This document shows, piece by piece, positions 7,201 to 25,412 of a DNA stretch of 25,412 nt. Every line of letters starts with the position of its first letter. Position 1 is the stretch's first letter. Source of the DNA: an uncultured Anaerolineales bacterium (GTDB lineage: Bacteria > Chloroflexota > Anaerolineae > UBA7937). The stretch spans positions 1-25,412 of the forward strand of contig CAYUAM010000001.1 in NCBI GenBank assembly GCA_964442805.1. The letters are read 5' to 3'. A program made the translations under genes and the position numbers. Below the pieces are notes generated by a model. That model was given only the letters and a program-made list of their open reading frames with translations, was not told the DNA's origin and ran no database searches.

Positions 7201-7800
7201 ATGACCAGGGCGGTAAGGTGTCCTCATTGTCTTTCTGTTGTCAGGGCTCAGATTAATGAGAGGTGCCGGTGCCCCTCATGTGGGGGATATTTCTTCGTCG
7301 CGAACCCAAGCCGAGCCCTCCTTGGCCCCTGCAGAAATCTCTATTCCATACCTCGAGGGAACCAGCGGCCAAGACGGGGAATGGCTAGGACGAGGAGTGG
7401 GGTGGGGTATGGTCCAATCCTTCAGGGGCCGGGGTACCAAGACGGGCTGGGGAGGTGGAACTCTATCATCTCCGGCGCCTGGCCGGCCACGTGTCAGGGC
7501 AGGCCAGGCGTACCAGGCCGAGGAACGATTATCGAGCCTTCCTTATATCCCAAGGAGCCGGAATGGGAGATAATTGACGGCAACCCTGATTATCAATTGA
7601 TTATCGATTTTCCATATCATCGGGATCAGGAGATAGCCGTGGAGACTGAGGGTGGGATCTTAGCAATCCGAAGTCTCAAAGAGGATGCTCCTCCTCGCTA
7701 TCACATCGAGTTTGCCCTTCCGCCGGAGGTTGTCGAAAAGAGCCTTAGCCGGGTGTTCAATAACGGCTCTCTGATCTTGCGCTTTGACAAGAAGGAGTAG
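7201..7800 (+). CDS. Zinc-ribbon / disordered linker / Hsp20-like (alpha-crystallin) domain protein
   Basis: RBS AAGGAG. N-terminal CPHC...CRCPSC, R/G/P-rich middle, and C-terminal EPEWEII...YQLIIDFP...EFALPPEV...[12 protein letters not shown] resembling the Hsp20 beta-sandwich. Confidence 0.65.
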
Positions 7801-7821
7801 GTAACCAGCAGCCCGAGATTG

Positions 7822-8028
7822 ATCGTGGGCCGCTCGCTTCTGCGGGTCGCTCAGGACCTCGTAGGCGGCGTTTATCTCCTTCGTTCTCTCCGCCGACTTG
7901 AGGTCCTTGTTTACGTCGGGACGATATTTCCGTGCGAGCCACCTGTAGGCTTGCTCAATAACCTCCGACCGAGCCTGTGGATGCACTTGGAGAATATCAC
8001 AGTAGTCTAGAGAGCTATAAATCGGTCT
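7822..8028 (-). pseudogene. J-domain (DnaJ N-terminal) remnant
   Basis: Reads [36 protein letters not shown]...[22 protein letters not shown] is changed to RPD and DYY to DYC. There is an in-frame TAG upstream (8029-8031) and no ATG before helix I. Confidence 0.75.
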
Positions 8029-8130
8029 CTATCACCGCGATGCAGCGCCAACCCCCTATTCATACAATTTCACAGACTCCCTCGTACTGGAGATGCTGGG
8101 GTTGTCATCCCCATGCCAAGATTCAACGGC

Positions 8131-8159
8131 TTGACAAAGTTGTCATCTTGTGCTATCAT
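8131..8159 (+). promoter_or_regulatory. sigma70-type promoter with overlapping palindrome
   Basis: TTGACA-17 bp-TATCAT with extended TG; inverted repeat TGACAA-AG-TTGTCA (8132-8145) covers the -35. Confidence 0.8.
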
Positions 8160-8212
8160 CTAGGCTAGATATTCTGCTATAGATATTGCTAGAACCCGGA
8201 GAGGCGGCAATC

Positions 8213-9034
8213 ATGGCTTTAGACAGGCGGAGGATCCGTTCAGCAGGTCGGACCACTGGCAGTGTGGAAATCACATTGCCGGTGGAGTTGCAAGTTCTGG
8301 AGGGCATTGAGTGTGAAGTGTTGGTGAGGGATGGGGTCAGACCAGAGATCGTTCTGCGGCCTAACGTTGAGGTCGCTCAAGCGCTCTTTGCCAACCTGTG
8401 GCAGCGGTTGAGGCTTGGCTTGCAGAGAGTTGGGGAGATCGGGGATTTCGACCTGAGCGATTTTAACGTGGCACTTCTGCCCCCACGCCATTGGTACGAC
8501 AAACCGCCTCTCTCCTACCAAGACGCCCTCGCAATCCTTTCCCATTTGAAAGAGAATAGAGGTTCCGCACGGGTCAACAACAGTGATGCCATGTTGCGTT
8601 TGGTGACCTTTCTGGCCGTAAACGCTGGCTATAGACTAGGTTTGAAAGGGCGATTTGCCATGGCTTTCGGCGATGCCGTTGGCTATTTGGTCTCTGGGGT
8701 GGGCAGCGGGCAGGGCACCGATTTTGAGCGCGACGTGGCTCTCTCTGCCTTTGGTGGTGAGGAGAAAGTAGCAGCAGGACAGATCGGTCCCCTCTCCTTT
8801 GATGGCCGGTGGGAGGAGGCAGGGGAAGGTCTAGAAAGGGTCTTCGCCCAGTTTTGGGAATGGCAAGAGGATCCAGAGCGATATGAAGAGGCCCGTAAGC
8901 GTTGGTGGAAAGCCATGACCAGGGTGGAAATAGGGGTATCCATTTCTACCCTTGAGGACTATCTGCAGCGGGCCAAGTCTCGGGACCAAAGTCATGAGGC
9001 GGACACTCCTCTCAGGGAGTCACCGTCGGTGTGA
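8213..9034 (+). CDS. Hypothetical protein with AbrB/MazE-like N-terminus (putative regulator)
   Basis: ATG 8213 with RBS GGAG. N-terminus RRIRSAGRTTGSVEITLPVEL resembles swapped-hairpin DNA-binding domains; the rest is not recognised. Confidence 0.6.
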   Translation: MALDRRRIRSAGRTTGSVEITLPVELQVLEGIECEVLVRDGVRPEIVLRPNVEVAQALFANLWQRLRLGLQRVGEIGDFDLSDFNVALLPPRHWYDKPPLSYQDALAILSHLKENRGSARVNNSDAMLRLVTFLAVNAGYRLGLKGRFAMAFGDAVGYLVSGVGSGQGTDFERDVALSAFGGEEKVAAGQIGPLSFDGRWEEAGEGLERVFAQFWEWQEDPERYEEARKRWWKAMTRVEIGVSISTLEDYLQRAKSRDQSHEADTPLRESPSV

Positions 9035-9056: not shown

Positions 9057-9596
9057 GTGGCTGACGAAAGAAGGAAGAGAGAAACAAGAATATCTGAGGA
9101 TGACACCAGCATCGGTCTAGGCCTTGGTGGCCTCTTCAAGGGGCTAGGCAACTTCATCGAGTTGCTATCCGAGATGGTCGAGGAGGGAGAATCTGAGATT
9201 ACCCGCCAGGGAGAATTCAAGATCAAAGGCCTGGAGAAGGCGCGAGGGGTCTATGGATTCACTGTGAAAACTGGCCTGGGCGGTATTCCTCGTGTCGAGT
9301 CTTTCGGCAACATTCGAGAGACGGAGAGAGGGCCCATAGTTACTGAGACGCGAGAACCCTTAGTCGATATTTTCGATGAAGGGGAAGTGATCCTCGTGCT
9401 GGTGGAATTGCCCGGAGTAGACGAGGAGGAGATAGAGGTCGATCTTCAGGGTGACGTCCTTTCCCTCTCCACCAAGGGGGAGAGGAAATACGTCAAGGAG
9501 ATGTTGCTTCCGCATCTTGTCGACCCGGCGACACTGACTACCAGTTACAGGAACGGGATCCTAGAACTGCGGGTCAACAAGGCGAAAGGTGGCTAG
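9057..9596 (+). CDS. hsp20: Hsp20/alpha-crystallin small heat shock protein, archaeal type (GvpH-like)
   Basis: GTG start with RBS AGGAGGTG; motifs VYGFTVK...FGNIR...REPLVDIFDEG...VELPGV...YRNGILE. Confidence 0.9.
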   Translation: MADERRKRETRISEDDTSIGLGLGGLFKGLGNFIELLSEMVEEGESEITRQGEFKIKGLEKARGVYGFTVKTGLGGIPRVESFGNIRETERGPIVTETREPLVDIFDEGEVILVLVELPGVDEEEIEVDLQGDVLSLSTKGERKYVKEMLLPHLVDPATLTTSYRNGILELRVNKAKGG

Positions 9597-9659: not shown

Positions 9660-10331
9660 ATGAGAAAACTTCTCTACATCCCCTTGATCCATGGCAGCGC
9701 AGACCTGGGCAGCGTGGCTTCGAGTGTGGATGAGAAGGGCTTAGCCATACATGGGGAGGAGAGATGGGAGGAACACAAGCGAACCATCTCCGGATTCTGG
9801 GATTCTATAGAGAGTTGTATGGATTCCCTAGACGTCACTGATTTCCAGATTTATCAGGATGGCCTAGCCGCCGATGGCTCCTTGGGCCAGAGGGTCGTAA
9901 AAGATACAGCCAGAAAGGGCAGCCGGAACTACCAAATAGTGGAGAGACTCATGGCTAGGGGGGCAGAGATAGTGAAGACCGAGGATATCTCCACGGTCCT
10001 CAAGGAGGTGGAACTCATCAAGAAGATAGCCCAATCCAAGTCAGTCCCGGGGCGATTGTTCGCAGCCCTGAAGTATGAACTGGCCAGGAAGAGGCTACTT
10101 GAGGAGAGAGACGAGTTCATAGCCAAGACCATCAACCATAGCCTGAAGCGCAACGGCATCCTCTTCATCGGCGCCTTCCACAATGTGATTCCTAAACTAG
10201 CCAGCGATATCGTCGTGGAGGAGGTCAAGGCCAAGGAGAAGGTGGAGGAGTATCAGAGGAGTTTCCTTCTCAGGGGGAAACAAGAAGGGGTGGAGGAACT
10301 GTCCAGATATCTGGTGGCTCCTGTGGAGTGA
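9660..10331 (+). CDS. Hypothetical protein between hsp20 and cdc48
   Basis: 223-aa ORF in operon orientation with codon style like its neighbours; motifs YIPLIHGSADLGS, IYQDGL, ILFIGAFH. Family not identified. Confidence 0.75.
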   Translation: MRKLLYIPLIHGSADLGSVASSVDEKGLAIHGEERWEEHKRTISGFWDSIESCMDSLDVTDFQIYQDGLAADGSLGQRVVKDTARKGSRNYQIVERLMARGAEIVKTEDISTVLKEVELIKKIAQSKSVPGRLFAALKYELARKRLLEERDEFIAKTINHSLKRNGILFIGAFHNVIPKLASDIVVEEVKAKEKVEEYQRSFLLRGKQEGVEELSRYLVAPVE

Positions 10332-10419: not shown

Positions 10420-12591
10420 ATGACTAGGAAGGACAAAAAAGAAGAGGGGGTCCTGACTTTGCGGGTTGCAGAAGGGCAGAGCAAGGATGTTGGAAGGGGC
10501 ATTGCCCGCATCGACCCCCAGGATTTCGAGAGGATCGGGGCGGCGATCGGCGATATCGTCGCTATCACCGGGAAGAGAACGACCGTGGCCAAGATCATGC
10601 CTGCCTATCACGCCGACCGAGGAAAAGGCATCGTGCAGATCGACGGCATAATTCGAGAGAACGCTCAAGCCAGTCTAGACGAAAAGGTCCGTATTCACAA
10701 GGTTGATCACCAGATAGCCAAGCAGCTCACCTTGGCCCCTCTGGGCTCGGGGCGGACTCTGCCTCGAGGGTCGGATAGCCGCTACGTTGGAAGGTTGCTC
10801 GAAGGGCTAGTTATCACTGAAGGGGATCGGGTTCGCGTCAACCTCTTCGGTACCCGCTCCGTGGATTTCACCGTGACCGATACCTCTCCTGAGGGCATGG
10901 TTATGGTGGCAGCAGCCACGATCACCAAGATCGAGGGGGAAGGGGCGGAGAGGGAGCGGGGGCTGAAGGTCTCCTATGAGGATATTGGGGGGCTGGGCAA
11001 GGAGATTCACCGCATCCGAGAGATGATCGAGTTGCCATTGAAATACCCTGAGGTCTTCGATCGGTTGGGCATCGAAGCACCAAAGGGCGTCTTGCTACAT
11101 GGCCCTCCGGGCTGCGGCAAGACCCTTATCGCCCGCGCCGTGGCCTCGGAAACATCTGCTCATTTCTTTCCCGTCAACGGCCCGGAGATCATCCACAAGT
11201 TCTACGGTGAGAGCGAGGCGCACCTACGGGAGATCTTCGAGCAAGCGAGCCGCAATGCGCCGAGCATCATCTTCCTAGATGAGATCGACGCTATCGCTCC
11301 CAAACGGGAGGAGGTACATGGCGAGGTGGAGAAACGGGTGGTGGCCCAGCTTTTGGCCCTGATGGATGGCTTGAAGTCCCGAGGCGAAGTGATAGTCATC
11401 GGGGCCACCAACATCCCGAACTCTTTGGACTCTGCTCTACGTCGTCCAGGCCGCTTCGACCGGGAGATCACCATCAGCATCCCGGACAAGAATGGCCGTC
11501 TGGAGATATTGGAGATACACACTAGAGGAATGCCCCTTGCTGATGATGTGGATCTGGAAAGACTGGCCGAGATCACCCACGGCTTCGTGGGAGCTGACCT
11601 GGAGGCTTTGTGCCGCGAAGCGGCCATGATCACCTTGCGTCAACTGATGCCGGATATCGACTTCGCTAAGTCTCACATCCCCTACGAGCGGCTGCTGGAA
11701 TTAGAGGTGACCATGGACAATTTCCTGACCGCTCTAGGAGAGGTCGAACCATCGGCCATCCGTGAGGTCTTCACTGAGGTTCCCGATGTCAGATGGGAGG
11801 ACATTGGGGGCTTGGAGGAGGTCAAGGAGATACTGAAGGAAACTGTTGAATGGCCTCTCAAGTACCCTGAGCTCTTCGCACAGGCCAAGACCGCGCCGCC
11901 TAAAGGGATACTTCTGTACGGGCCGCCGGGCACAGGCAAGACGCTTTTGGCCAAAGGGGTAGCCAACGAAAGCGAAGTGAATTTCATCTCCGTCAAGGGC
12001 CCGGCGCTCATGTCTAAGTGGATGGGGGAGAGCGAAAAGGGGGTGCGTGAGGTATTTAAGAAGGCCCGGCAAGCAGCACCCTGTATCATCTTCTTCGACG
12101 AGATCGATGCCCTAGCCCCCATACGGGGCTATGGCGGCGGAGACTCCCATGTGGCTGAGCGGGTGGTCAGCCAGTTTTTGACGGAGATGGACGGCATTGA
12201 GGAACTGAAAGGGGTAATCGTCTTGGCCGCCACTAACCGTTTGGACATCATCGACCCAGCATTGTTACGTCCTGGCAGGTTCGATGTGCTCATCGAGTTG
12301 CCCCTCCCCGACCGTGAGGCCCGTGAGGCGATCTTCAAGATCCATACCAAGGACAAACCCCTGGCTTCCGATGTTGACCTGAGGATCTTGACGGATATGA
12401 CCGAGGGCTCAGTGGGAGCGGACATCGAATCGATCTGTCGCCAGGCCTCGATGTTAGCCATTCGAGAGTTTCTCAATGAGGAGGTCGACTCTAAATCGTA
12501 TGAGAGTTTTCAGATCACCATGCGACATTTCCGCCAGGCGATAGAAATGGCCGGGAAACTGGCCTCGCCGGGACCATTGACGAAGGGTTAG
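10420..12591 (+). CDS. cdc48: CDC48/p97/VAT-family double AAA+ ATPase
   Basis: ATG 10420 with RBS GGAGG. N-domain [18 protein letters not shown]; Walker A GPPGCGKT and GPPGTGKT; Walker B FLDEID and FFDEID; two RPGRFD arginine-finger motifs. Confidence 0.96.
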
Positions 12592-12617
12592 ACATAGGGA
12601 AGAGTTTGTGGTATAAT
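12589..12617 (+). promoter_or_regulatory. Strong sigma70-type promoter P1 at the end of cdc48
   Basis: TAGACA-17 bp-TATAAT with extended TG. Confidence 0.8.
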
Positions 12618-12623
12618 GTTATT

Positions 12624-12830
12624 GGTATTTCTTCCATTTTTGAGATTAGATATCTTGCTTGTTAGGGTCAGATCCTCGAGATCTAGTGAGGTCGATGAGA
12701 CAGCGTTGGTGTTGAGTGCGCCCCTTCCTGGAGGAAGGTGTCTACCCCAGCGATGACGACTCTCGCCAGGAAGGTCTTTTCGAGGGTCTGACGGAGTGAC
12801 CCCGTCGCAAAGACGGGGTCACTCATTTTT
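12624..12830 (+). ncRNA. Putative structured ncRNA or leader, unit 1 (unassigned family)
   Basis: Lies between promoter P1 and a terminator. 15-bp closing stem 12667-12681/12778-12792 plus nested stems; no credible ORF. Confidence 0.55.
12794..12830 (+). terminator. Intrinsic terminator
   Basis: Perfect 13-bp stem GAGTGACCCCGTC / GACGGGGTCACTC, then ATTTTT. Confidence 0.85.
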
Positions 12831-12933
12831 GGAACCGAAGGCCGTGTATGGGAGAGTGCGTTTTCTTAACCACTTCCGGGTCCGTTATCTTTCGCTGGGC
12901 ATTGGAATTTACGGAAAATTTACGCATAGCCCA

Positions 12934-12962
12934 TTGACACCTCAGTAAGAAGGTGGTAAGAT
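12934..12962 (+). promoter_or_regulatory. sigma70-type promoter P2
   Basis: TTGACA-17 bp-TAAGAT with extended TG; preceded by AATTTACG x2 at 11-bp period (12906-12924). Confidence 0.75.
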
Positions 12963-12968
12963 TATAGA

Positions 12969-13290
12969 TGAATTTGATGAATTTGAGGACTTCCTCTCAT
13001 GACAAAATAGACCCTCTGAAAGGGGAGGGGTGAAGCCAGGGGTGTAAGATGAAAGCAGGCTAGGGTAACCAGCCAGATTACCGCCGCGGGCTCGGCGGCG
13101 AAGAGGATGCTTCGTCAATCTCTTCTGGTGTGGTTGTCCTTCGGTTGGCTTTCTAGTGGGGGAGAGTGCTTCGTGTTAAGGAGTCTGACAAGTACCTCAT
13201 TGAATCTGTGCACTCCTTACTCGGTTAGCTCATTTTGCAGAGGTTTTGAGCCATCTTGACCTTATTGGGTTGAGATGGCTCTTTTTCTTT
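12969..13290 (+). ncRNA. Putative structured ncRNA or leader, unit 2 (unassigned family)
   Basis: Lies between promoter P2 and a terminator. Multibranch pairing: 12993-13010/13229-13243, 13032-13039/13145-13152, 13062-13077/13124-13140, 13177-13184/13212-13219. Confidence 0.55.
13248..13290 (+). terminator. Intrinsic terminator upstream of gvpA
   Basis: GAGCCATCTTGACC / GGTTGAGATGGCTC (14 bp with G-U pairs), then TTTTCTTT. Confidence 0.85.
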
Positions 13291-13507
13291 GAAAGCGGGG
13301 AGTAAAAGGAAAGGGCTGACCGGGGATCAGCCCTCCCGAGGAGAATCGGGCTAAACCATTGCTCAGCATTTGCCAGGCCGGTAATGGATCACCCATCGGC
13401 TATACTCAGGAGGTGTGATTATCCTCCTGGTGCCCTCTCCCCAGGAATTATTCTATCACAGTTTAGTCTAAAAGTAAAGGATTACGGACGAAAGGAGGTG
13501 AGAAGAG

Positions 13508-13720
13508 GTGGCAGTGGAGAAGGCTATCGCGTCCTCGAGCCTGGTCGAAGTTGTCGACCGGGTCTTGGACAAGGGGATCGTGATTGATGCTTGGGCCAGG
13601 ATCTCCCTGGTGGGCATCGAGATACTAGCCCTCGAGGCCAGGGTCGTGGTCGCTGGGGTAGACACCTTCCTCAAGTACGCCGAGGCCATCGGCTTGACGC
13701 CGCTGGCTGCACCGGCCTAG
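13508..13720 (+). CDS. gvpA: Major gas vesicle structural protein GvpA, copy 1
   Basis: 70 aa, [56 protein letters not shown]; GTG start with RBS AGGAGGTG. Confidence 0.98.
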
Positions 13721-13797: not shown

Positions 13798-14010
13798 ATG
13801 GCAGTGGAGAAGGCTATCGGGTCCTCGAGCCTGGTCGAAGTTATCGACCGGGTCTTGGACAAGGGGATCGTGATCGATGCTTGGGCCAGGATCTCCCTGG
13901 TGGGCATCGAGATACTAGCCCTCGAGGCCAGGGTCGTGGTCGCTGGGGTAGACACCTTCCTCAAGTACGCTGAAGCCATCGGCTTAACCCCCTTGGCTGC
14001 TCCGGCGTAG
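13798..14010 (+). CDS. gvpA: Major gas vesicle structural protein GvpA, copy 2
   Basis: 68/70 aa identical to copy 1; the RBS region is duplicated as well. Confidence 0.98.
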
Positions 14011-14181: not shown

Positions 14182-14730
14182 ATGCTTTTCGCAGAAGAGA
14201 TGCAAGAGTTGGCTGAAGGGATCGTGGCCTCGAAGCGCAGCCGCATAGAGGGGATAGCGAACCTAAAGAATGAGACCCAAAATCAGTTGGCCGGCTACAA
14301 GAGCGATCGCCAAGCCATGGCCCAGGAGTTACACGCCGGACTTGAGGCGGATAAGGCGGCTCTGATGGCTGATACCGCCACTCTGATGAAGGAACTAGGT
14401 GAACTTGACGCAGCCCGCCAGGCAGAGGTGAGGGTTGAGTTGGCCGAGGCCAGGTCTCAATTGAAGAGCGACACCGCTGCTCTGATGAAGGGACTGGGCC
14501 GAGGGACCAAGGCCCGTAGGAAGGAAGTGAAGGCCGAGTTGGCCGAGGCCAGATCTCAATTGAAGAGCGAGATCGGTGCTTTGATGAGGGAACTGAAGGC
14601 GGAGATGAAGGCGGCTCGGAGGGCCTGGCAGCAAGGGCTGCGGGCAGCGCTACGAGAGAGTAAACCGAGGCCACCGGCACGGCGAACCTCTCCACGTAAA
14701 GCCGCATCGCCGAAAGAACCGGCTGCATGA
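14182..14730 (+). CDS. gvpC: GvpC-like protein with 33-aa helical repeats
   Basis: ATG 14182 with RBS GAGGTG. Three 33-aa repeats (DNA repeat at 14437 and 14536, 99 bp apart). Lies between gvpA and gvpN. Confidence 0.8.
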   Translation: MLFAEEMQELAEGIVASKRSRIEGIANLKNETQNQLAGYKSDRQAMAQELHAGLEADKAALMADTATLMKELGELDAARQAEVRVELAEARSQLKSDTAALMKGLGRGTKARRKEVKAELAEARSQLKSEIGALMRELKAEMKAARRAWQQGLRAALRESKPRPPARRTSPRKAASPKEPAA

Positions 14731-16533: not shown

Positions 16534-17094
16534 ATGACAAGGGATAAGGAGAAGAAGCGGGATGAAATGGAGGCCATAGACCTGGGCGGTCTCTTCAAGG
16601 GGATCGGCGATCTCATCGAGTTGGTCTCAGGGATGGTGGAGAAGGTGGATCTAGCCAACCTCGATGAAGAGACCCTCTCTAGGCTGCGGCGAGCCAGCCA
16701 GAGCGGGGTCGTAGGAGCACCGAGAAGCGTCTACGGCGTCTCGATACAGCGAGGAGTGGGTGGCATCTCCAGGGTGCAGCCCTTCGGCAATATCCGCCGC
16801 ACCGAGAGAGGCCCTGTCGTTGAGGAGGTGAGGGAGCCCCTCACCGATCTCTTCGAGGAGGATGATCTACTCTTGGTCGTTGCTGAGTTGCCCGGCGTGG
16901 AGGAGAAGGAGATACGGATCGAAATCGAGGACGACACTCTCAAATTCTCCTCCACCGGAAAGAGGAAATACGCCAAGGGACTTCCCCTTCCTTTTCCTGT
17001 CGACGAGAGCACCATGGAGACCACCTACAAGAACGGCATCTTGGAGATCAAGTTGGGCAAGAGAAGCGAGCCGGATGAGGAGAAAACCGAGTGA
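16534..17094 (+). CDS. hsp20: Hsp20/alpha-crystallin protein, paralog of 9057-9596
   Basis: [14 protein letters not shown]...[27 protein letters not shown]...AELPGV...YKNGILE; its stop overlaps the dnaK start (GTGA). Confidence 0.9.
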
Positions 17095-18923
17095 GTAAGG
17101 CGATCGGCATCGACCTGGGAACCACGAATTCGGTGATGGCGGTGATGGAGGCGGGCAGGCCCATGGTCATCCCCAATACGGAGGGCAGCCGCCTCCTCCC
17201 TTCAGTGGTAGCCATCGACGGAAAAGGCGAACGGCTGGTGGGGGAGGTGGCCAAATGGCAAGCCATCATCAATCCCCACAATACGGTCTTCTCCATTAAA
17301 CGTTTCATGGGGCGAAAATTATCCGATGCTTCTGTGCAATATGACAAGGCGCTGGTGCCCTACGAATTGACCGCTGCCGACAACGGCGATCTCCGGATAG
17401 TCATCAAAGGCCGGGGGTACCCACCGCCGGAGATTTCGGCCATGATTCTGCAGAAGTTGAAACGCGATGCCGAGATGTACCTGGGCGAGCCGGTCACTCG
17501 GGCGGTGATCACCGTGCCAGCCTACTTTAACGATAGCCAACGCCAGGCAACTAAAGAGGCGGGGCGAATAGCCGGGCTCGAGGTATTGCGCATCATCAAC
17601 GAGCCCACCGCCTCGGCTCTAGCCTATGATTTTCCCCACGAGAAGCGGGAGACCATCGCCGTCTACGACCTGGGCGGGGGAACCTTCGATATCTCCGTCC
17701 TAGATCTGAGCGCTGGCGTCTTCGAAGTCCTCTCCACCAGCGGCGATACCCATCTGGGTGGGGATGACCTAGACAGAAGGACCATCGAATGGCTCTGCGA
17801 TGGTTTCTTGGAGGAGGAGGACATCGACCTGCGAGAGGACAGGGTAGCCTTGCAAAGACTCAGGGTAGCAGCAGAGCAGGCCAAGATCGAACTCTCGGCC
17901 GCGCAGCAGGCCCAGATCGATCTACCCTTCATTGCTAGAGATGGCAATGACCCCAAGCATCTCAATGTCACCCTCAGCCGCTCGAAATTAGAGCAGTTGG
18001 TGGGCGATCTGATCGAGAGGACCATCGAGCCCTGCTGGCAAGCGTTGGCGGATGCTGGTCTCAGGGTTTCTGATGTGGATCATGTGATCCTGGTGGGCGG
18101 TCAGACGAGGATGCCTCTCGTGGTGCGTACCGTTCGTGAACTCTTCGGGAAGGAGCCCCACCGGGATATCAACCCCGATGAGGTAGTTGCGCTGGGAGCC
18201 GGTATCCAAGCCGGGGTTTTGACCGGCGATGTGAAAGGGGTGCTCCTCATCGATGTCACCCCCTTGACGCTGGGCATAGAGACCTCGGGCGGCGTGGCCA
18301 GCCCCCTCATCCCGCGCAACACCACCATCCCCACTCGCAGGAGCCAGGTCTTCACTACTGCCAGGGATGACCAGAGTAGTGTGGAGATACACGTGATGCA
18401 GGGCGAGCGGGCCATGGCCGTGGAGAATATGACCCTGGGTCGCTTTGTCTTGGAAGGTATCCACCCCGCGCCGCGCGGCGAGCCCAAGATCGAGGTCACT
18501 TTCCAGATCGACGCCGACGGCATCTTGCAGGTTACTGCTCAGGACCAGGCCACAGGTAAGGAACAGCAGATCACCGTCGCCGCTTCCAGCGGCCTCTCAG
18601 AGAAGGAGATCAAGTGCATGGTCAAGGAGGCGAAGGAGTACGCCGAGCGGGACAGAGAGCGACGCGAGGAGATCGAGATCCTCAACCGAGCCGACAGGCT
18701 GGCCTACCGCGCCGAGAAGACGTTGCAGCGGTATGGCGATGACGTGCCGCCAGCCGTCAGGAGGGAGATGAAGAGCAAGGTAGCGGCTCTGCGCGAGGCG
18801 CTGAAGGAAGGAGAGATCCCTGCCGTGAAGAACGCCTGGCAAGGGCTAATTGAGACGGCAGAGAAGATCGCGGCTTGGCTTGATGAGGAGCCGATGGAAA
18901 TAGCACCGCCTCTAGATAGATGA
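17091..18923 (+). CDS. dnaK: Hsp70 chaperone DnaK (cluster-specific paralog)
   Basis: [31 protein letters not shown], linker [12 protein letters not shown]; 610 aa with a short C-tail; no grpE or dnaJ adjacent. Confidence 0.97.
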
Positions 18924-18939
18924 GATGGAGGATGAGGGC

Positions 18940-20019
18940 ATGGCAGAGGAGGCCAAGTATATTTACGGAGTGATCCAGAACGGAGGGAGAAGGACCTTCG
19001 GCTCTATTGGTATAGGTGGACGGGGAGATGAAGTGTATGTGGTCCCCTGTCAGGATTTGGCTGCGGTGGTCAGCGATTGCCCAGCCATAGATTACAAGGC
19101 GGTAAAGGAGAAGGAGAAGATAGTCCGTGATCTGGCGGCACATCAACGCGTGACCGAAGAGGTCATGAAGCACTGTTCCATCCTACCCATGAAGTTCGGC
19201 ACCATGGTGGAGGAGGAGAAGGAGGTGGAAAGCGTATTGCGTCAAGGGTATTTCAACCTCAAGGAGGCTCAGGCCGCCTTCCAGGACAAGGTTGAGGTAG
19301 AAGTGGTGGTCACCTGGGACCTCACTTCCGTCTTCCAGGAAGTTGGCAACGAGGAGCCCATCGCCAAATTGAGAGCCAAGACGGAGGGTAGACCGGGCTT
19401 AAGAGGACTAAACGATAGGATCAACCTGGGCAAGATAGTATATGAATCTCTATCTCGCAGGCGGGAAGATCATCAAAGAGAGATAGTTGAAGTTCTCGCT
19501 AACTGTTCCATCGATAGGCAAAAGAACGCTCTCATGGATGATAGTTTTGTGATGAACGTGGCCTTTCTCATCGATAAGGAGCGACAGGATGAGTTCGATG
19601 AGAGGCTTGAGGAGTTGGATAAGGGAATGGGTGGCGCTTTGAACTTCCGACGCATCGGGCCCCTGCCTCCCTATAGTTTTGCCACCATCGAGGTGCGGCC
19701 TATGACTCACCAAGAGGTCAAGGGGGCCAGGGAGTTATTGGGCCTGGGTGAGAAGGCCAGCCTAGGGGAAATAAAGGAGGCCTACTATGACCTGGCTCAG
19801 GAGTGTCACCCTGATGCCCAGCCGGACGGCAATGCAGGAGAGCGCTTTACCCAAATCGCCCAGGCCTATGAGTTGCTAAAGAGCTACTGTTTGGGACAGG
19901 CAGCGGCCCAAGGAATCACCTCTAAGAAGGCAGCTGCCGAGTATTCTTGCTCCTTTACTCCGGCGGCCATTGAGGAAGGCGTTCTGGTCACCATCAAGCG
20001 TTTGGGGAGAGAGACCTGA
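18940..20019 (+). CDS. gvpF: GvpF/GvpL-family protein with C-terminal J-domain
   Basis: KYIYGVI...LPMKFGT...VEVEV...GPLPPYSF, then ELLGLGEKASLGEIKEAYYDLAQECHPD...FTQIAQAYELL with intact HPD at 19807-19815. Confidence 0.88.
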   Translation: MAEEAKYIYGVIQNGGRRTFGSIGIGGRGDEVYVVPCQDLAAVVSDCPAIDYKAVKEKEKIVRDLAAHQRVTEEVMKHCSILPMKFGTMVEEEKEVESVLRQGYFNLKEAQAAFQDKVEVEVVVTWDLTSVFQEVGNEEPIAKLRAKTEGRPGLRGLNDRINLGKIVYESLSRRREDHQREIVEVLANCSIDRQKNALMDDSFVMNVAFLIDKERQDEFDERLEELDKGMGGALNFRRIGPLPPYSFATIEVRPMTHQEVKGARELLGLGEKASLGEIKEAYYDLAQECHPDAQPDGNAGERFTQIAQAYELLKSYCLGQAAAQGITSKKAAAEYSCSFTPAAIEEGVLVTIKRLGRET

Positions 20020-20834
20020 TGAGCCACGGCTCCGATGACGGGAGAATGATATATCTGTATTGCTTAACCCAGAGCCATGGGGAGGCCCCTTTTCGCCTAT
20101 CGGTCGAGGGGATCGGCGGCCGGGACGGTGAGGTCTACAGCATCCCCTTCCTCGATCTGGCCATGGTAGCCAGCGACTCGCCTCAAGATGAATATGAGAC
20201 TACTCGCCACAATACTGTGCACCATCAATTAGTTTGCGAGGAGGTCCTGAATCACGGCTTCGCTGTTCTCCCGGTCAGATTCGGGACGGTATGCAAGCCC
20301 ACTCGGGGCAAGAGTAGCGCCGAGGAGAAGATCAAGAAGTTGCTCAGGCGAAGGTATGGCGAGTTTCATTCCCTGCTGGGGGAGATGGAGAACAAAGTCG
20401 AGCTGGGGCTGAAAGTCTTTTGGAAGAAGGAGCGTCTCTTCCAAGAGATCGCGGCTGAAAACCAAAATATACGAGAGATGCGGGATCGCATCGCCGCCAA
20501 CCTCTCGGGGGCATTGTCGACCCACTACGAGAGACTGCAACTGGGTACCAGGGTCTATAACGAGATAGAGAATAGGAGGGACATTGAGGCTAGGAGGCTG
20601 GCGCGGGCTCTCAGTCCCCTGGCCGAGAGGTACGAAACCAACAAAGTCCTCACCGATGTGATGATCCTCAACGCTGCCTTCCTGGTTCATCACTCCCGAG
20701 TGGAGGAATTTGATGCCAAAGTCAACGAATTAGATAGGAGATATAGTGATAGGATGACCTTCAAGTATGTGGGCCCCGTGCCTCCCTTTAACTTTGTGGA
20801 ACTGGTCGTGCACTGGGAAGAAGACGAGGAGTGA
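20019..20834 (+). CDS. gvpF: GvpF/GvpL-family protein
   Basis: IYLYC...VLPVRFGT...VELGLKV...LNAAFLV...YVGPVPPFNFV; TGATG overlap with the previous gene. Confidence 0.92.
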   Translation: MSHGSDDGRMIYLYCLTQSHGEAPFRLSVEGIGGRDGEVYSIPFLDLAMVASDSPQDEYETTRHNTVHHQLVCEEVLNHGFAVLPVRFGTVCKPTRGKSSAEEKIKKLLRRRYGEFHSLLGEMENKVELGLKVFWKKERLFQEIAAENQNIREMRDRIAANLSGALSTHYERLQLGTRVYNEIENRRDIEARRLARALSPLAERYETNKVLTDVMILNAAFLVHHSRVEEFDAKVNELDRRYSDRMTFKYVGPVPPFNFVELVVHWEEDEE

Positions 20835-21037: not shown

Positions 21038-21373
21038 ATGTTCCTCATATCATGGTTGGAACACCAATTGCTTAAGACGGTGGGTAAGGTGCTGGCTGTG
21101 CCAGTGACTGTACCGATCAAATCTGCAAGTTGGCTGCTCGAGCAGATCCATGGAGAAGCAGAGGCAGAGCAACTCAATGAGGACCGCGTCAGGCAGCAGT
21201 TGATGGAGTTGGAGATTCGCTACGAGGCGGAAGAGATCGGGAAGGAGGAGTTCCAGGCCCAAGAGGAGGAGTTGCTGGAGCGGTTGAACGCCATTCGCGA
21301 GCGCAAGAAAGATGAGCAGTTTGAGAAAGACGAGACCTGGTGGCGCAGGGTATTCTCCGAGGGGTTCAAGTAG
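21038..21373 (+). CDS. gvpG: Gas vesicle protein GvpG
   Basis: ATG 21038 with RBS AAGGAG; PIKSASWLLEQIHGEAEAEQLNEDRVRQQLMELE...EEFQAQEEELLERL. Confidence 0.88.
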   Translation: MFLISWLEHQLLKTVGKVLAVPVTVPIKSASWLLEQIHGEAEAEQLNEDRVRQQLMELEIRYEAEEIGKEEFQAQEEELLERLNAIRERKKDEQFEKDETWWRRVFSEGFK

Positions 21374-21471: not shown

Positions 21472-21870
21472 ATGGTTAAGCAAAAAAGGGCAGAGGGCTC
21501 AGTCCTAGAGCAGATCGCAGCCACTCGCAGAGTGGCGATACTGAAGGACTCTATCAAGCAGGAGGAAGACGGGCATTACAGCGAAGCGATCGATGGATAC
21601 CGACAGATCATCGACCAACATCATGGCACCCCAGAGGAAAAGGAGGCCAGAGAAAGGATGCTGGACCTGGCCCGCCTCTTCCAGAGCAAAGGGCAAAGTT
21701 ATCGAGCGAGGCACCTTTTCTGGCTCTTGGAGCAACTCTATACACCTCAGAGATTCAAGAACATAAAGGAATTACGCCGGGCGCGAGTTAAAGAGATACT
21801 GGATGAGATCCACGCCGAAAAGCGTGCTGAGGAGGAGAGAAGGGCTAGAGTAGAAGCTGAAGGCTTGTAG
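21472..21870 (+). CDS. TPR-like helical protein with charged C-tail
   Basis: YSEAIDGYRQIIDQHHGTPEEKEARERMLDLARLFQSKGQSYRARHLF resembles a TPR pair; RBS GGAGG. Confidence 0.65.
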   Translation: MVKQKRAEGSVLEQIAATRRVAILKDSIKQEEDGHYSEAIDGYRQIIDQHHGTPEEKEARERMLDLARLFQSKGQSYRARHLFWLLEQLYTPQRFKNIKELRRARVKEILDEIHAEKRAEEERRARVEAEGL

Positions 21871-22052: not shown

Positions 22053-22409
22053 TTGGCCAAACAATATGTGGAGCCGGACCGACGTGGGAGCCTCATCGAT
22101 GTTATAGACACCATCCTGGACAAGGGCTTGGTGATCAACGCCGACATCACCGTCTCGGTAGTGGGTGTAGAGCTCTTGGGCATCAAAATAAGGGCCGCCT
22201 TGGCCTCCTTTGAGACCGCAGCCAGACACGGCCTGGAGTTCCCTTCAGGGACCAACATACAAACGCCAGCCTGGGCCGAGGCCCAAATCTCCAAGGAAGA
22301 ATGTCCCCAGTGCAGCAAACGGGTGGCAGCGGAGGAGTTGCTGGAGGTGGGCTGTCCTTGGTGTGGTTGGGTTAGCGCTCGGGCTGAAGCCAAGGCCCTA
22401 GAGGCCTAA
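22053..22409 (+). CDS. gvpJ: GvpJ-like (GvpA family) protein with C-terminal zinc ribbon
   Basis: [44 protein letters not shown], then CPQC-x13-CPWCGW; TTG start. Confidence 0.85.
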
Positions 22410-22484: not shown

Positions 22485-22778
22485 ATGGTATTTATGGAGC
22501 CCTTCTGGATCCTGATAGATCTGATCTCGGGAGAGGCCAGGAAAGAGGACGAGAGGAGGGGGGACCCGAGATACGTGAAATGTCTCCACTGCGGCGGCCT
22601 GGTGTTGAAAAGCGAGGTTAGAAGGAGAGGAGGTTGCTACCTCTGTGGCTGGGTACCGGGGGCTGAAACGGTACGAAAAGAGGAAAGGGCTTTGAGGGTG
22701 AGATGCCCCCAATGTGGCCGCCCGGTGCTGAAAAGCGAACTCATCAAAAGGGGGTGTTATCTCTGCGGCTGGAGGTGA
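22485..22778 (+). CDS. Small tandem zinc-ribbon protein
   Basis: CLHC-x14-CYLCGW and CPQC-x13-CYLCGW. Confidence 0.75.
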   Translation: MVFMEPFWILIDLISGEARKEDERRGDPRYVKCLHCGGLVLKSEVRRRGGCYLCGWVPGAETVRKEERALRVRCPQCGRPVLKSELIKRGCYLCGWR

Positions 22779-22849: not shown

Positions 22850-23941
22850 TTGGAAGCAAAAACCGTTCTACTGCCATCGAGTTACAGCAAGGCTACCCTG
22901 GTAGACCTACTGGATAGGGTCTTGGAGAAAGGGCTGGTGATTAACGCCGATATCATCATCTCCGTGGCCGGCATACCGTTGTTAGGGGTTAACCTGAGAG
23001 CGGCTCTGGCGGGCATGGAGACCATGCTGGAATATGGGCTGATGCGCGAGTGGGACGAGCGCACCCGTGAATGGGAGCGGAAACATATCGAAAAGAGGGG
23101 ACCGCACCTATTGGCTGAAGAGGAGATCCTCTTACTGATGTATGGGGCCCATTGGCATAGCAAAGGCATCTACCGCGCTTGGCGGCCTGGACACCTCTAC
23201 CTCACCAACAAGAGGCTATTTCTGTTTCGCAGCGAGCCTGGGGAGATGCTCTTTGAGACCCCCCTGGAGAAGATCAAAGCCTTGGCTATCCGGAGAGAGA
23301 CTCACTTCACGGGCATCGAAAGAGATATGGTTTACGTCGCTCTCAACCCTGAAAGGCTAGCCTACCTCTGCGCTGAGAGGCCAAGGGAACTTCAAGAGGC
23401 CATTCGCAGGAGAATAGAGGCCTTAGGCCTTCCCTTGGATGAGAGCCCTGGGCTTTCTCCCCTCGATGCGGAGATAGATGGGCTCCTTGGGGAAGATGAG
23501 ATAACCGCTGAAGCCAAGATGTGGTATCAACTCCCCCCCTCTGGCATCAGGGGAGAGAGATGGGGACCAGGTCGGTTGTATCTGACCAATAAGCGTCTCT
23601 TTTGGCGGTGCCATGAGGATCGCAAGATACCATTCGAGATCCCCCTCGCCGAGATAAGGGGGGCCAGGATGGAGAGGAGGGATCTAGGAGGGCTGATAAG
23701 GGAAAGGCCTGTTCTTTGCCTCTCTTACGGAAACCCCTTGGGCGCGAAAAGGGCTCTCTTTGTGGGGGATGATCTGACCGAGTGGGAGAAGGCCATCAAC
23801 CGCATCGTTGGGGAGATGGAGAGCTGTCCTCGTTGTGAACGCCGTGCTCCTACAAGACGGTTGTTAGAGAGGGGATGTCCTGACTGTGGCTGGGTGAGTC
23901 CCTGCCGGAGAGACGAAGCCTCGCCCCCGTTGGCGAGATAG
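22850..23941 (+). CDS. GvpJ-like domain fused to two GRAM/PH-like repeats and a zinc ribbon
   Basis: [44 protein letters not shown]; two repeats W(R/G)PG(H/R)LYLTNKRLF...FE(T/I)PL(E/A)(K/E)I; CPRC-x13-CPDCGW. Confidence 0.82.
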   Translation: MEAKTVLLPSSYSKATLVDLLDRVLEKGLVINADIIISVAGIPLLGVNLRAALAGMETMLEYGLMREWDERTREWERKHIEKRGPHLLAEEEILLLMYGAHWHSKGIYRAWRPGHLYLTNKRLFLFRSEPGEMLFETPLEKIKALAIRRETHFTGIERDMVYVALNPERLAYLCAERPRELQEAIRRRIEALGLPLDESPGLSPLDAEIDGLLGEDEITAEAKMWYQLPPSGIRGERWGPGRLYLTNKRLFWRCHEDRKIPFEIPLAEIRGARMERRDLGGLIRERPVLCLSYGNPLGAKRALFVGDDLTEWEKAINRIVGEMESCPRCERRAPTRRLLERGCPDCGWVSPCRRDEASPPLAR

Positions 23942-23961
23942 ATGGGGCAGGAGGGGGAATC

Positions 23962-24294
23962 ATGGCTGGCATAGTCGACCTCGACGAAGATAATTTCAAA
24001 CACGGGATCTTGGGACTGGTCATCACTCTGGTGGAGATAATAAGGGATACCCTCAAGTTGCAGGCTTTCAAGCGGATAGAGGGTGGGAGCCTCACTGAGG
24101 AAGAGATCGACAGGTTAGGACGAGCGCTTTCAGATCTCGATATGGCCCTTGATCAGATAAAGGAGGAGCAAGGGATAGCCGACACGGTTCAAAGCGTGAG
24201 AGATGGCTTGGATGAGATCGTGGACGAGATCTTAGATAAGATGGTAAACCCCCTGGGGTGGGCGGAGGAGTTCGAAAAGGAGGTGCAAAGATAA
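23962..24294 (+). CDS. gvpK: Gas vesicle protein GvpK-like
   Basis: LDEDNFKHGILGLVITLVEIIRDTLKLQAFKRIEGGSLTEEEIDRLGRAL. Confidence 0.9.
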   Translation: MAGIVDLDEDNFKHGILGLVITLVEIIRDTLKLQAFKRIEGGSLTEEEIDRLGRALSDLDMALDQIKEEQGIADTVQSVRDGLDEIVDEILDKMVNPLGWAEEFEKEVQR

Positions 24295-24471
24295 AGTGGC
24301 CCGGACCTTCCTCCTCTCCTCGAAGGCGAGCAAATCCTCCTCCACCAGCAAAGGGGTTATCTCTCCAGAGGCTCCTGGAGATTGGGCTACCTCTACCTGA
24401 CGGATTAAAGGCTCCTCTTTCGTCGGAGGAAAGAGGTGCGGGGTGTGATGAGGGCTGATGATGTCGTTTAA
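24291..24471 (+). pseudogene. GRAM/PH-like single-domain pseudogene
   Basis: From 24295 reads SGPDLPPLLEGEQILLHQQRGYLSRGSWRLGYLYLTD*RLLF, with TAA at 24406-24408 where the paralog at 22850 has K (LYLTNKRLF). RBS AGGAGGTG is followed by ATA rather than ATG. Confidence 0.7.
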
Positions 24472-25021
24472 GGAGATCGGGGAAGAGGATCTGAAGAGGG
24501 TCGTCGAGGCTTTGGACCCGGCAAGTGCCCAGATGGTCTGGTATCTCTGGGAGCATAGACATGCCAAGATAGAAGAGTTAAGAGAGGTGTTGGGCGAATC
24601 CTCTCACATGAACGTCTTGGTGCGAATCAAGGAGACGATAAACCCCACAGCCTGCAAGATAGTAGGCAGGCCGATCTTGGTCTTTGAGAAGGGGAGGATA
24701 GACCGCTCTAGCGGGGAGAGGATCCTTCATAGTTGGTGGTTGAACAGAGATTCTGAGAGGAGGCAGATAGAGGGGGAGAAGTTGGTGGATATCTTTGACG
24801 AAGGGGACCATATCTTACTCATCGTGGAACTGGTCGGTTTTGATGAAAAAGGTATCCAATTGGCCGTAGAGGATGAGACGCTTGTGTTGAAGGCGGAAGC
24901 CCCTGGCCGAAGTGTGCAGGAGGAGATACCCCTTCCTCCCCAGGTTGATGGCCAAAGGTTTGAGATGACCTATCGCAATAACATGTTGCAAGTCAGGTTT
25001 GAGAAGGAGCAAGCAAGATGA
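24458..25021 (+). CDS. Winged-helix-like N-domain fused to an Hsp20/alpha-crystallin domain
   Basis: N-half LDPASAQMVWYLWEHRHAKIEELREVLG; C-half LVDIFDEGDHILLIVELVG...EEIPLP...YRNNMLQVRF. Confidence 0.78.
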   Translation: MMSFKEIGEEDLKRVVEALDPASAQMVWYLWEHRHAKIEELREVLGESSHMNVLVRIKETINPTACKIVGRPILVFEKGRIDRSSGERILHSWWLNRDSERRQIEGEKLVDIFDEGDHILLIVELVGFDEKGIQLAVEDETLVLKAEAPGRSVQEEIPLPPQVDGQRFEMTYRNNMLQVRFEKEQAR

Positions 25022-25412
25022 ATACCCCTTTAGAGAGAGAGCGACAAGCCAGGTATATATACGGCGTTATTCCCCGCCTAGATAAAGAGAGCCTTGGCCC
25101 AATCGGCATCAGGGGAAATACGGTCTACCCCATCTCCCATAGGGAGTTAAGCGCCCTGGTTCACGACTGCTCGCCGGAACCGTATCGTGGAGATGAGGAG
25201 GAGGTCAAAGAATGGGTAGCGGCTCATGCCGCGGTAGTCGATGCTGCCTGGGCAGAGGCTGAAACCGTGTTGCCCATGAGTTTCGATGTCATCGTCAAGG
25301 GCGATGAGGAAAGGAGCGCTGAGGAAAACGTGCGAAAGTGGCTGGAGGAGGGGTATGCGACGCTGAAAGCCAAATTGGAGGAGTTGAGAGGTAAGGTTGA
25401 GCTGGGCGTTCA
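25018..25412 (+). CDS. gvpL: GvpL/GvpF-family protein, third paralog (3' truncated by window)
   Basis: Not in the ORF track. ATGA overlap at 25018; MNTPLERERQARYIYGVIP...LSALVHDC...AHAAVVD...VLPMSFD...LRGKVELGV. Confidence 0.88.
   Translation, partial: MNTPLERERQARYIYGVIPRLDKESLGPIGIRGNTVYPISHRELSALVHDCSPEPYRGDEEEVKEWVAAHAAVVDAAWAEAETVLPMSFDVIVKGDEERSAEENVRKWLEEGYATLKAKLEELRGKVELGV

Follow-up and report, generated by a model that had tools for sequence, protein, structure and literature searches.

Genes for Hsp70, a J-domain protein, Hsp20 and CDC48 interleaved with the gas vesicle genes of an uncultured Anaerolineales bacterium

The first 25,412 bp of contig CAYUAM010000001.1 (GenBank assembly GCA_964442805.1) from an uncultured Anaerolineales (Chloroflexota) bacterium, hereafter referred to as the window, include a functional-looking gas vesicle (gvp) gene cluster that carries its own set of chaperone genes. 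Domain calls with Pfam and NCBIfam, together with a profile–profile comparison for one gene, showed that positions 7201–25412 form a single co-oriented gvp cluster, in which genes for an Hsp70, a GvpF protein fused to a J-domain, four proteins with an alpha-crystallin (Hsp20-type) domain and a CDC48-type unfoldase are interleaved with the gvp genes. It is likely, with a probability of approximately 0.65, that the cluster specifies a dedicated ATP-driven system of holdases, an Hsp70 with its J-protein, and an unfoldase that maintains proteostasis of the very hydrophobic GvpA-family (GvpA/J/M) shell proteins. An earlier note on this DNA had proposed a dedicated line for either the assembly or the disassembly and recycling of gas vesicles, and this proposal is supported by the co-conservation of the chaperone genes with gvp genes and by the separate clade to which the Hsp70 belongs.

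Organisation of the chaperone genes

The earlier note had listed four small heat-shock protein (sHsp) domains, a CDC48 double AAA+ ATPase, a DnaK and a J-domain with an intact HPD motif, all co-oriented and interleaved with gvp genes. Each of these elements was recovered at or near the positions listed there, and every gene from 7201 to the end of the window lies on the plus strand. The translational coupling proposed for three gene pairs is also borne out, as start and stop codons overlap in GTGA at 17091–17094 (hsp20/dnaK), TGATG at 20017–20021 (gvpF-J/gvpF) and ATGA at 25018–25021 (24458 gene/gvpL). The stop codon of dnaK is separated by 1 nt from the open reading frame (ORF) of gvpF-J, which opens at 18925.

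The gvpF-J gene (18940–20019, plus strand; ORF from 18925) encodes a GvpF/L protein (Pfam GvpL_GvpF, 202.7 bits) with a C-terminal J-domain encoded at 19732–19881 (Pfam DnaJ, E 8.6e-13, residues 270–319). The HPD motif is located at residues 295–297 (nucleotides 19807–19815) and is invariant across a 30-sequence GvpF-J alignment. The fusion is not confined to the window, as both Pfam domains were found in 119 of the 120 best GvpF-J matches, at identities down to 39%. GvpL_GvpF is the sole domain besides DnaJ, and neither a Gly/Phe region nor a CXXCXGXG zinc finger is present. Interaction studies describe GvpF as the primary binder of GvpA, which contacts the hydrophobic face of GvpA transiently, and propose a chaperone role for GvpF (PMC11445434, PMC9501494). 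GvpF binds monomeric GvpA early, possibly co-translationally (PMC11445434). Given that a known GvpA binder carries an attached J-domain, the architecture of GvpF-J is that of a predicted client-specific class C (type III) J-protein, which would stimulate the ATPase of an Hsp70.

Hsp70 of the gas vesicle cluster

The Hsp70 gene (dnaK; 17091–18923, plus strand) is flanked by hsp20 and gvpF-J. Its product (Pfam HSP70, 795 bits) exceeds the cut-offs of both NCBIfam DnaK equivalogs, with 907.7 bits for NF001413 (cut-off 648) and 883 bits for TIGR02350 (cut-off 822.55), and is thus a DnaK as claimed in the earlier note. The protein has a full nucleotide-binding domain, the linker, the beta part of the substrate-binding domain and the lid, and could be aligned to residues 1–598 of E. 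coli DnaK. It is 610 aa long versus a median of 631 aa for housekeeping DnaKs, and the housekeeping C-terminal tail is missing. No hrcA, grpE or dnaJ gene lies near it. Because of this non-housekeeping context, as compared with the hrcA-grpE-dnaK(-dnaJ) context of other Chloroflexota DnaKs (see below), the window Hsp70 was assigned as a specialised DnaK paralogue.

Relatives with 88, 72, 71 and 70% identity to the window DnaK (P0002, P0013, P0018 and P0029, respectively) are encoded in gvp clusters. Those with 68% (P0031) and 67% (P0045) identity are found in hrcA-grpE-dnaK and hrcA-grpE-dnaK-dnaJ-prmA contexts, respectively. P0045 was considered as a housekeeping copy from the same genome and was discarded, as it came from another assembly.

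The phylogeny versus housekeeping dnaK that had been proposed earlier was determined by neighbour-joining with 100 bootstraps. In a tree of 133 sequences, the window DnaK belongs to a separate clade, designated clade A, which comprises the gvp-type proteins (30 database clusters), was monophyletic in 100/100 bootstraps, and is distinguished by 12 diagnostic positions. All clade A members for which the context was read are encoded in gvp clusters, and all non-clade Chloroflexota DnaKs for which it was read are encoded in hrcA-grpE-dnaK(-dnaJ) operons. A set delimited by identity rank (P0001–P0029) was not monophyletic, and inclusion of P0036 and P0038 gave the supported clade.

Hsp70 genes are present also in more distant gvp clusters, at loci L109, L115, L138, L147, L163, L172 and L179 and in the actinobacterium Ca. 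Hakubella (L009). Seven of these eight proteins, including that of Ca. Hakubella, form a second clade (clade B) in 100/100 bootstraps, which L109 joins weakly (57/100). The Hakubella Hsp70 had been outside clade A in a first tree and was placed in this separate gvp-context clade after metagenomic sequences were added. Clades A and B grouped together in 81/100 replicates.

The two clades differ from housekeeping DnaKs in the substrate cleft. At the arch position equivalent to M404 of E. coli DnaK, 100 of 102 housekeeping proteins have L, whereas clade A has K (18 proteins), L (9), Q (2) or S (1), and clade B has Q or E. The window Hsp70 has Ser at this position, and hence no hydrophobic arch residue, together with S427T and the linker replacement L392I. 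S427T is common to clades A and B, and L392 of the linker is replaced by I or V in both. Among the residues that contact the J-domain, R167 and T173 are kept in both clades, and N170 is present in all clade A and 5/8 clade B proteins. The window DnaK is predicted to be a dedicated copy that exists beside a separate housekeeping dnaK in the same genome.

Small heat-shock-type proteins

The four sHsp domains named in the earlier note are all present, and their detection required methods of different sensitivity, with two genes exceeding the Pfam cut-off, one recognised by NCBIfam and one by hhalign only. The products of 9057–9596 (GvpH-like; Pfam HSP20, 28.8 bits, cut-off 20.8; GvpH, 27.6 bits, cut-off 22) and of 16534–17094 (Pfam HSP20, 30.4 bits), the latter translationally coupled to dnaK, are Hsp20 proteins. 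The third gene (24458–25021), which is coupled to gvpL, encodes a protein with an unassigned N-terminal half. Its match in Pfam is weak (ArsA_HSP20, E 0.0033), and residues 104–185 match the archaeal Hsp20 family NF041800 (E 2.3e-16). The 7201–7800 gene product gave no Pfam match. Profile–profile alignment by hhalign related its C-terminal 80 conserved residues to the alpha-crystallin profile of the cluster Hsp20 proteins (probability 95.6%, E 1.3e-8), indicating a divergent fourth copy. The N-terminal part of this protein is a CxxC...CxxC zinc ribbon (CPHC and CPSC motifs), and the protein is conserved in L001, L011 and L008. All four genes are on the plus strand. A precedent for the function of such proteins in gvp clusters is GvpH, which is Hsp20-like and prevents aggregation of GvpM (PMC9501494).

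A conserved gene of unassigned function (8213–9034, plus strand; ORF opening at 8186; 273 aa) travels with the Hsp20/CDC48 module. Homologues with 49–90% identity were found in L001, L011, L008, L115, L126, L150, L157 and L090, and no Pfam, NCBIfam or PDB sequence-profile match was obtained for the family. As judged by eye, the N-terminus (RxRSAGRTxGSxEITLP) resembles swapped-hairpin DNA binders of the AbrB/MazE type.

CDC48 and its TIKI/TraB-like neighbour

The CDC48 gene (10420–12591, plus strand; ORF opening at 10357) encodes a double-ring AAA+ unfoldase of the CDC48/VAT type, in agreement with the earlier claim, with a TIGR01243 score of 969 bits (cut-off 803). CDC48_N, CDC48_2 and two AAA domains with lids were recognised by Pfam, and the best PDB match is VAT of Thermoplasma (5g4f, E 6e-229). 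Both rings have aromatic pore loops, with the VAT sequence KFYG in D1 and KWMG in D2, and Walker A and B motifs are intact in D1 and D2. The protein ends in ...PGPLTKG, and an HbYX motif was found in none of its 120 closest relatives (0/120). In the absence of the HbYX tail, docking to the proteasome is unlikely. The window CDC48 is 72% identical to that of Ca. Hakubella.

Upstream of CDC48 lies a gene for a 223-aa protein (9660–10331, plus strand), whose family has 666 representative relatives. A gene of this type adjoins CDC48 also in L008 and is located just downstream of CDC48 in L180. The window protein gave no Pfam match, and the family has no Pfam entry of its own. Among 57 family members, 24 matched PF01963 (TraB_PrgY_gumN; best E 6e-5, just under the cut-off) and three matched PF04187 (ChaN/Tiki); a PDB sequence-profile search with the family gave nothing significant. 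Across the family, E108 and R150 are fully conserved and H11 almost so, and positions 171–174 form a GxxH motif (G171, H174). These His, Glu, Arg and GxxH motifs are presumably those of the TIKI/TraB superfamily itself. An AlphaFold2 model built from the 57-sequence alignment had a confidence score (pLDDT) of 96.7, as compared with 36 for a single-sequence AlphaFold model. A Foldseek search with the model gave RRSP-type toxin domains and HopBA1 as the best matches, at weak scores (E 0.07–0.3, TM 0.33–0.36); these proteins are taken here to belong to the EreA/ChaN/TIKI-like fold group. With moderate confidence, the 9660 protein is considered a TIKI/TraB-like putative hydrolase.

Recurrence of the arrangement

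A neighbourhood survey, which had been suggested earlier, was carried out and showed that Hsp20, CDC48, Hsp70 and J-domain genes recur with gvp genes in many independent contigs and in at least two phyla. The expectation of the earlier note that similar gene sets may exist unstudied elsewhere was correct, and the arrangement is found again in many environmental bacteria. The nearest loci, L010 and L011, are from metagenome-assembled genomes labelled Anaerolineales and Anaerolineae, and the named protein matches are from Chloroflexota. The gene order of the window is repeated at 62–93% protein identity in the independent contigs L001, L010, L011, L104 and L008, and hence the arrangement is not due to chance. 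The whole layout is kept in the first four of these, and L008 retains the Hsp20/TIKI-like/CDC48 block with 59–75% identity.

In assembly GCA_964532665.1, a block consisting of the 8186 homologue, two Hsp20 genes, the 9660 homologue, CDC48 and a 7201-like gene is kept with 46–75% identity. This block is on the strand opposite to gvpJ/K/L and faces these genes, and a dnaK-volactin-gvpF-J-ArsA segment lies 10–20 kb off on the same contig. In Ca. Hakubella thermalkaliphila (Actinomycetota), gvpA, gvpN, CDC48, gvpF-J, gvpF, gvpG, gvpO, ArsA, Hsp20, gvpK, gvpL and Hsp70 form one run, of which the genome paper mentions hsp20 alone (PMC7325909).

A metagenome scan with the 30-sequence GvpF-J alignment gave 80 loci, and co-occurrence was counted in the 20 loci of at least 12 kb. 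CDC48 is present in 15, Hsp20 in 16, Hsp70 in 8 and ArsA in 8 of these, and at least one of CDC48, Hsp70 and ArsA is present in 19. The CDC48 gene is often directly upstream of gvpF-J, and the co-occurrence holds down to 37–45% GvpF-J identity.

Two further gene types were observed in related clusters. In sister clusters with 70% identity, a gene for an actin-fold protein of the Volactin family (PF25216) lies between dnaK and gvpF-J (L003, 12473–13504; L005, 13558–14589; L006, 12534–13565; and L101); this gene is absent from the window. ArsA/Get3-type ATPase genes are common in related clusters, some with two copies (L003, 17633–21878; L005, L006, L009, L091, L092 and L180), and are found neither in the window nor in the syntenic L001.

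c-di-GMP riboswitches

A riboswitch aptamer of the cyclic di-GMP (c-di-GMP)-I-GGC class was identified at 6738–6816 on the plus strand (Rfam RF03167, 73.1 bits, gathering threshold 59, E 8e-16, model positions 1–80 of 80). It is located approximately 360 nt upstream of 7201, the first gene of the Hsp20/CDC48 module. A strong intrinsic terminator follows at 6805–6844 (plus strand), with a 13-bp stem and then TTTTTTGTTT. The 6805–6844 hairpin is formed in the minimum free energy fold (z = -4.4). The 3' strands of the aptamer share bases with the 5' arm of this hairpin. The terminator is likely to be the expression platform of the aptamer. Given this overlap, ligand binding should block termination, and the riboswitch is probably an ON switch, with c-di-GMP as the predicted ligand. 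Both the riboswitch and the TIKI/TraB-like gene had been overlooked in the earlier note.

The leader of gvpA, a 916-bp spacer (12592–13507, plus strand), has promoter-like sites and two terminator-like hairpins. No Rfam aptamer was found in it even at E <= 1. This leader is homologous to the aptamer-bearing stretch between CDC48 and gvpA of L001, L010, L011 and L104, in which c-di-GMP-I aptamers were found in two copies (L001, 5433–5521 and 5729–5816; L010, 4315–4403 and 4608–4696) or one (L011, 5806–5893; L104, 3462–3550). The window leader appears to have lost one aptamer and to retain an Rfam-negative, decayed c-di-GMP-I-like copy of the other at ~13002–13085. Regulation thus seems to have been rewired between near relatives.

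In more distant gvp clusters no riboswitch was found. Genes for response-regulator/GGDEF proteins (diguanylate cyclases) were observed beside riboswitch-free gvp clusters in L008 (13548–14513, minus strand) and L090 (15744–16655), which is a further hint of c-di-GMP involvement. No paper joining c-di-GMP, a riboswitch and gas vesicles was found by full-text search, which many subscription papers lie outside.

Gas vesicle genes and remaining features of the window

The essential accessory set of GvpF/L, GvpG, GvpJ/M-type, GvpK and GvpN proteins is complete in the window, with all members above the Pfam cut-offs; all genes from gvpA to gvpL described below are on the plus strand. Two gvpA copies (13508–13720 and 13798–14010; Pfam Gas_vesicle, 56.3 and 56 bits, respectively) share 94% nucleotide identity. 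They are followed by a gene (14182–14730) for a protein with a 33-residue period, seen as an offset-33 peak in the protein self-comparison. The period is visible in the protein only, and no DNA-level repeat was found in the gene by Tandem Repeats Finder. As judged by the repeat period and the position after gvpA, which is the same in all related loci, this protein may be termed GvpC-like. Next is the gene for GvpN, a MoxR-type AAA+ protein (15017–16009; Pfam AAA_5, 68 bits), homologues of which (64–84% identity) come after gvpA/C in related clusters. A small conserved gene 3' of gvpN (16036–16323) has homologues in L003, L005, L006 and L011, and its product gave no family match in Pfam or NCBIfam.

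Downstream of gvpF-J are a second, J-domain-free gvpF (20019–20834; Pfam GvpL_GvpF, 218 bits), gvpG (21038–21373; Pfam GvpG, 66.6 bits; start set from the L001 gene call), and a gene for a conserved 132-aa protein of unassigned function (21472–21870) with homologues of 68–81% identity in L001, L006, L010 and L011. These are followed by genes for a GvpJ/A-family protein with a C-terminal zinc ribbon (22053–22409; Pfam Gas_vesicle, 57.6 bits; CPQC and CPWC motifs) and a double zinc-ribbon protein (22485–22778) with four CxxC motifs and weak matches to zinc-ribbon families. The 22850–23941 gene product combines a GvpM/J-like N-terminus (Pfam Gas_vesicle, 60.6 bits; NCBIfam GvpM, E 3.6e-27) with two GRAM/PH-like domains (Pfam GRAM and Vps36-GLUE matches) and a C-terminal zinc ribbon; this unusual fusion is kept in L001, L008, L009, L090 and many metagenomic loci. 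The cluster continues with gvpK (23962–24294; Pfam GvpK, 64.6 bits) and, after the 24458 gene, a gvpL/F gene cut by the end of the window (25018–25412; Pfam GvpL_GvpF, 107 bits).

Zinc ribbons of the CxxC...CxxC type occur in four cluster proteins (encoded at 7201–7300, 22300–22409, 22485–22778 and 23825–23941), and several small proteins with DnaJ_CXXCXGXG-like zinc fingers are encoded in L003, L005, L006, L090 and L091. These may be stand-alone versions of the client-binding zinc-finger module of DnaJ.

Bases 1–5124 carry, on the minus strand, genes for a family-5 solute-binding protein, a LacI-type regulator and a small HTH-like protein, which are unrelated to gvp. No credible ORF was recognised in the ~1.6-kb stretch between these genes and the riboswitch (5125–6737). 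The loci compared contain no homologue of this stretch, and a scan of 5100–6740 gave no Rfam match. A near-consensus sigma-70-like promoter was observed within it at 6400–6428.

Proposed role of the chaperone genes

The identities of the domains, the order and co-conservation of the genes, the two separate clades of Hsp70 and the riboswitch are observed, and the following scheme is proposed from them. GvpF-J, as a class C J-protein, would deliver GvpA, or the tip of a nascent vesicle, to the cluster Hsp70 and trigger ATP hydrolysis. The altered arch of the Hsp70 cleft and the altered linker suggest tuning to the GvpA client and the GvpF-J partner. The four alpha-crystallin-domain proteins would be holdases, as GvpH is for GvpM. 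The VAT-like CDC48, with the putative TIKI/TraB-like hydrolase, would act by threading and unfolding on Gvp material that is misassembled, aggregated or collapsed, so that it can be reused or removed, and the chaperone module would be under ON control by c-di-GMP. Both the clients and the direction of the process are inferred in this scheme, and the evidence fits assembly, quality control or active disassembly alike.

Several observations weigh against a dedicated system. The organisms are uncultured, and formation of vesicles is predicted from the genes of a metagenomic contig. A GrpE-type exchange factor is absent from the window cluster. In 12 of the 20 fusion-bearing loci, no Hsp70 gene is present within 10 kb, and in L091, L125, L135 and L154 the J-fusion is accompanied by neither Hsp70 nor CDC48 in the ~10-kb flank read. 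Hence, a private Hsp70 is optional, the J-domain is the constant element, and it may normally be served by the housekeeping DnaK. The grouping of clades A and B, in trees that were all obtained by neighbour-joining, could be due to long-branch attraction. A scan of genome contigs with very specific peptide patterns of the window DnaK gave the gvp-linked L010 and L011 and unrelated dnaKs, and no pair from the same assembly. The TIKI-like label of the 9660 protein leans on sub-threshold Pfam matches and weak Foldseek scores and is accordingly putative. Finally, L180 (1–14117) carries genes for Hsp70 (51% identity), ArsA, a zinc-finger protein, an HTH-Hsp20 fusion, CDC48 and the 9660 homologue, with no gvp gene in 14 kb at the contig end; the chaperone kit may exist there apart from gvp genes, or these may be located further along.

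Three other explanations were considered. The set could be a machine for disassembly and recycling, in which GvpF-J recruits Hsp70 to existing or collapsed vesicles, CDC48 and the TIKI-like hydrolase extract and process GvpA, and an active loss of buoyancy is gated by c-di-GMP. CDC48/VAT enzymes are extraction and unfolding machines, and the window protein shares with VAT, a processive unfoldase, the aromatic character of both pore loops; the gene that neighbours CDC48 in a conserved manner encodes a putative hydrolase; the Hsp20/TIKI-like/CDC48 block is a separate sub-operon, with its own riboswitch in the window and on the strand opposite to gvpJ/K/L in L008; and vesicles are assembled in model clusters without any of these genes (PMC9501494). 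However, the Hsp70 and J-fusion genes lie amid assembly genes, in the translationally coupled order gvpN-hsp20-dnaK-gvpF-J-gvpF-gvpG, the binding of GvpF to GvpA concerns the monomer at an early, possibly co-translational stage (PMC11445434), and a protease role of the TIKI-like protein is putative. A machine acting in disassembly rather than assembly is considered possible, though rather unlikely. A similarly tentative standing is given to the wider proposal of an organelle-dedicated machine that both builds and dismantles vesicles, in which GvpF-J and Hsp70 would load or strip GvpA and a proteasome-independent CDC48 with the TIKI-like hydrolase would extract subunits under the gating of c-di-GMP.

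Much less probable is a general stress or proteostasis function of the chaperone genes, which would be co-regulated with a mobile gvp island, or hitch-hike on it, and would lack specific Gvp clients. Hsp20 genes adjacent to gvp have been read as a heat-shock link (PMC7325909), the high identity of CDC48 across phyla (72% to Ca. Hakubella) fits horizontal spread of a module, and the chaperone set of L180 has no visible gvp genes. Such an origin is difficult to reconcile with a J-domain that is physically joined to the GvpA-binding part of the protein in at least 119 sequence clusters, with Hsp70 clades that are specific to the gvp context and have cleft changes, or with co-occurrence that persists down to 37–45% GvpF-J identity. 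It is opposed also by the interleaving and overlap of the chaperone genes with gvp genes; for this reason, and given the conserved order, an inserted stress island was rejected. Least probable of all, and highly unlikely, is that the cluster dnaK is the single housekeeping DnaK of the organism moved into the gvp cluster, with GvpF-J as an ordinary co-chaperone. The protein does exceed the thresholds of the DnaK equivalogs, its catalytic and J-contact residues are all present, and no second dnaK was retrieved from the same genome. Nevertheless, a bootstrap value of 100 and 12 diagnostic positions set its clade apart, its C-terminus is shortened, and hrcA, grpE and dnaJ are absent nearby, unlike the case of every non-clade Chloroflexota DnaK with context read. 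Furthermore, many relatives that have the fusion lack a clustered Hsp70, and their genomes must therefore carry a housekeeping copy at another site.

Comparison with known systems

The occurrence of Hsp20 and ArsA genes in gvp clusters was noted in 2010 for Chlorobi, Bacteroidetes, Geobacter and cyanobacterial clusters (PMC2963123). Clusters with GvpH/Hsp20 and ArsA (e.g. Halobacterium gvpH) share the core gvp set and an alpha-crystallin-type protein with the window, and ArsA is found also in the more distant relatives of the window, though not in the window itself. They have one Hsp20 versus four in the window, which adds Hsp70, GvpF-J, CDC48 and the TIKI-like protein. The earlier statement that model clusters lack the combination of a holdase, Hsp70 and p97 agrees with reviews (PMC9501494, PMC11445434). 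No mention of any of these four additions was found in the gas vesicle literature searched in full text, a search that many subscription papers lie outside, and the arrangement is apparently undescribed.

The HscA/HscB system, which serves the Fe-S scaffold IscU, is similar in that a specialised Hsp70 paralogue with an altered substrate cleft is encoded beside its client pathway, and its client-specific J-protein lacks the Gly/Phe and zinc-finger regions of DnaJ. It differs in that the window Hsp70 scores as DnaK rather than HscA (908 versus 633 bits), the window J-domain is fused to a Gvp protein, and the presumed client is a structural shell protein. The sHsps IbpA/B, DnaK/DnaJ/GrpE and ClpB constitute a disaggregation network. 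The window has the same three tiers, with a holdase, an Hsp70/J-protein pair and a double-ring AAA+ hexamer as threading motor, but its motor is of the CDC48/VAT type without the M-domain for docking of DnaK, no GrpE is present, and the genes are located inside an organelle cluster. In eukaryotes, auxilin and Hsc70 uncoat clathrin, which is a role in disassembly. As in GvpF-J, the J-domain of auxilin is joined to a binder of a self-assembling protein lattice, where it targets Hsp70; the two systems are unrelated beyond the J-domain, and that of the window may act in either direction.

The window CDC48 shares the N-D1-D2 architecture and aromatic pore loops in both rings with archaeal VAT/Cdc48 and actinobacterial Cpa (PMC5423775, PMC6017811). 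It differs from these in being HbYX-free, in its bacterial host, and in its linkage to gvp genes and the TIKI-like protein instead of the 20S proteasome. The window aptamer is a full-length member of the GGC variant (RF03167) of c-di-GMP-I (GEMM-I) riboswitches, scores above the gathering threshold and is followed by an intrinsic terminator as in known members; it is distinguished by the genes downstream, which are a chaperone module in the window and gvpA in the relatives, and its ligand is predicted.

Implications for gas vesicle biology

Solubility of the extremely hydrophobic GvpA and its insertion into the shell, including the roles of GvpF/L and of the cluster ATPases, are the central open problem of gas vesicle biology, which through proteotoxicity also constrains the expression of acoustic reporter genes in heterologous hosts (PMC12848028). 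The naturally occurring GvpF-J fusion provides independent genomic support for the proposed chaperoning of GvpA by GvpF and points to Hsp70 as the partner. The clusters also define two organelle-dedicated Hsp70 lineages, and bacterial CDC48 homologues, the roles of which are largely obscure, gain a candidate client and a candidate cofactor. If the modules improve the handling of GvpA, their transfer to engineered gas vesicle systems could be of use. The c-di-GMP riboswitches would tie buoyancy to the classic second messenger of the motile/sessile transition. Should the machine indeed both build and dismantle vesicles, it would represent the first ATP-driven route of gas vesicle disassembly and provide the first defined client of a bacterial CDC48.

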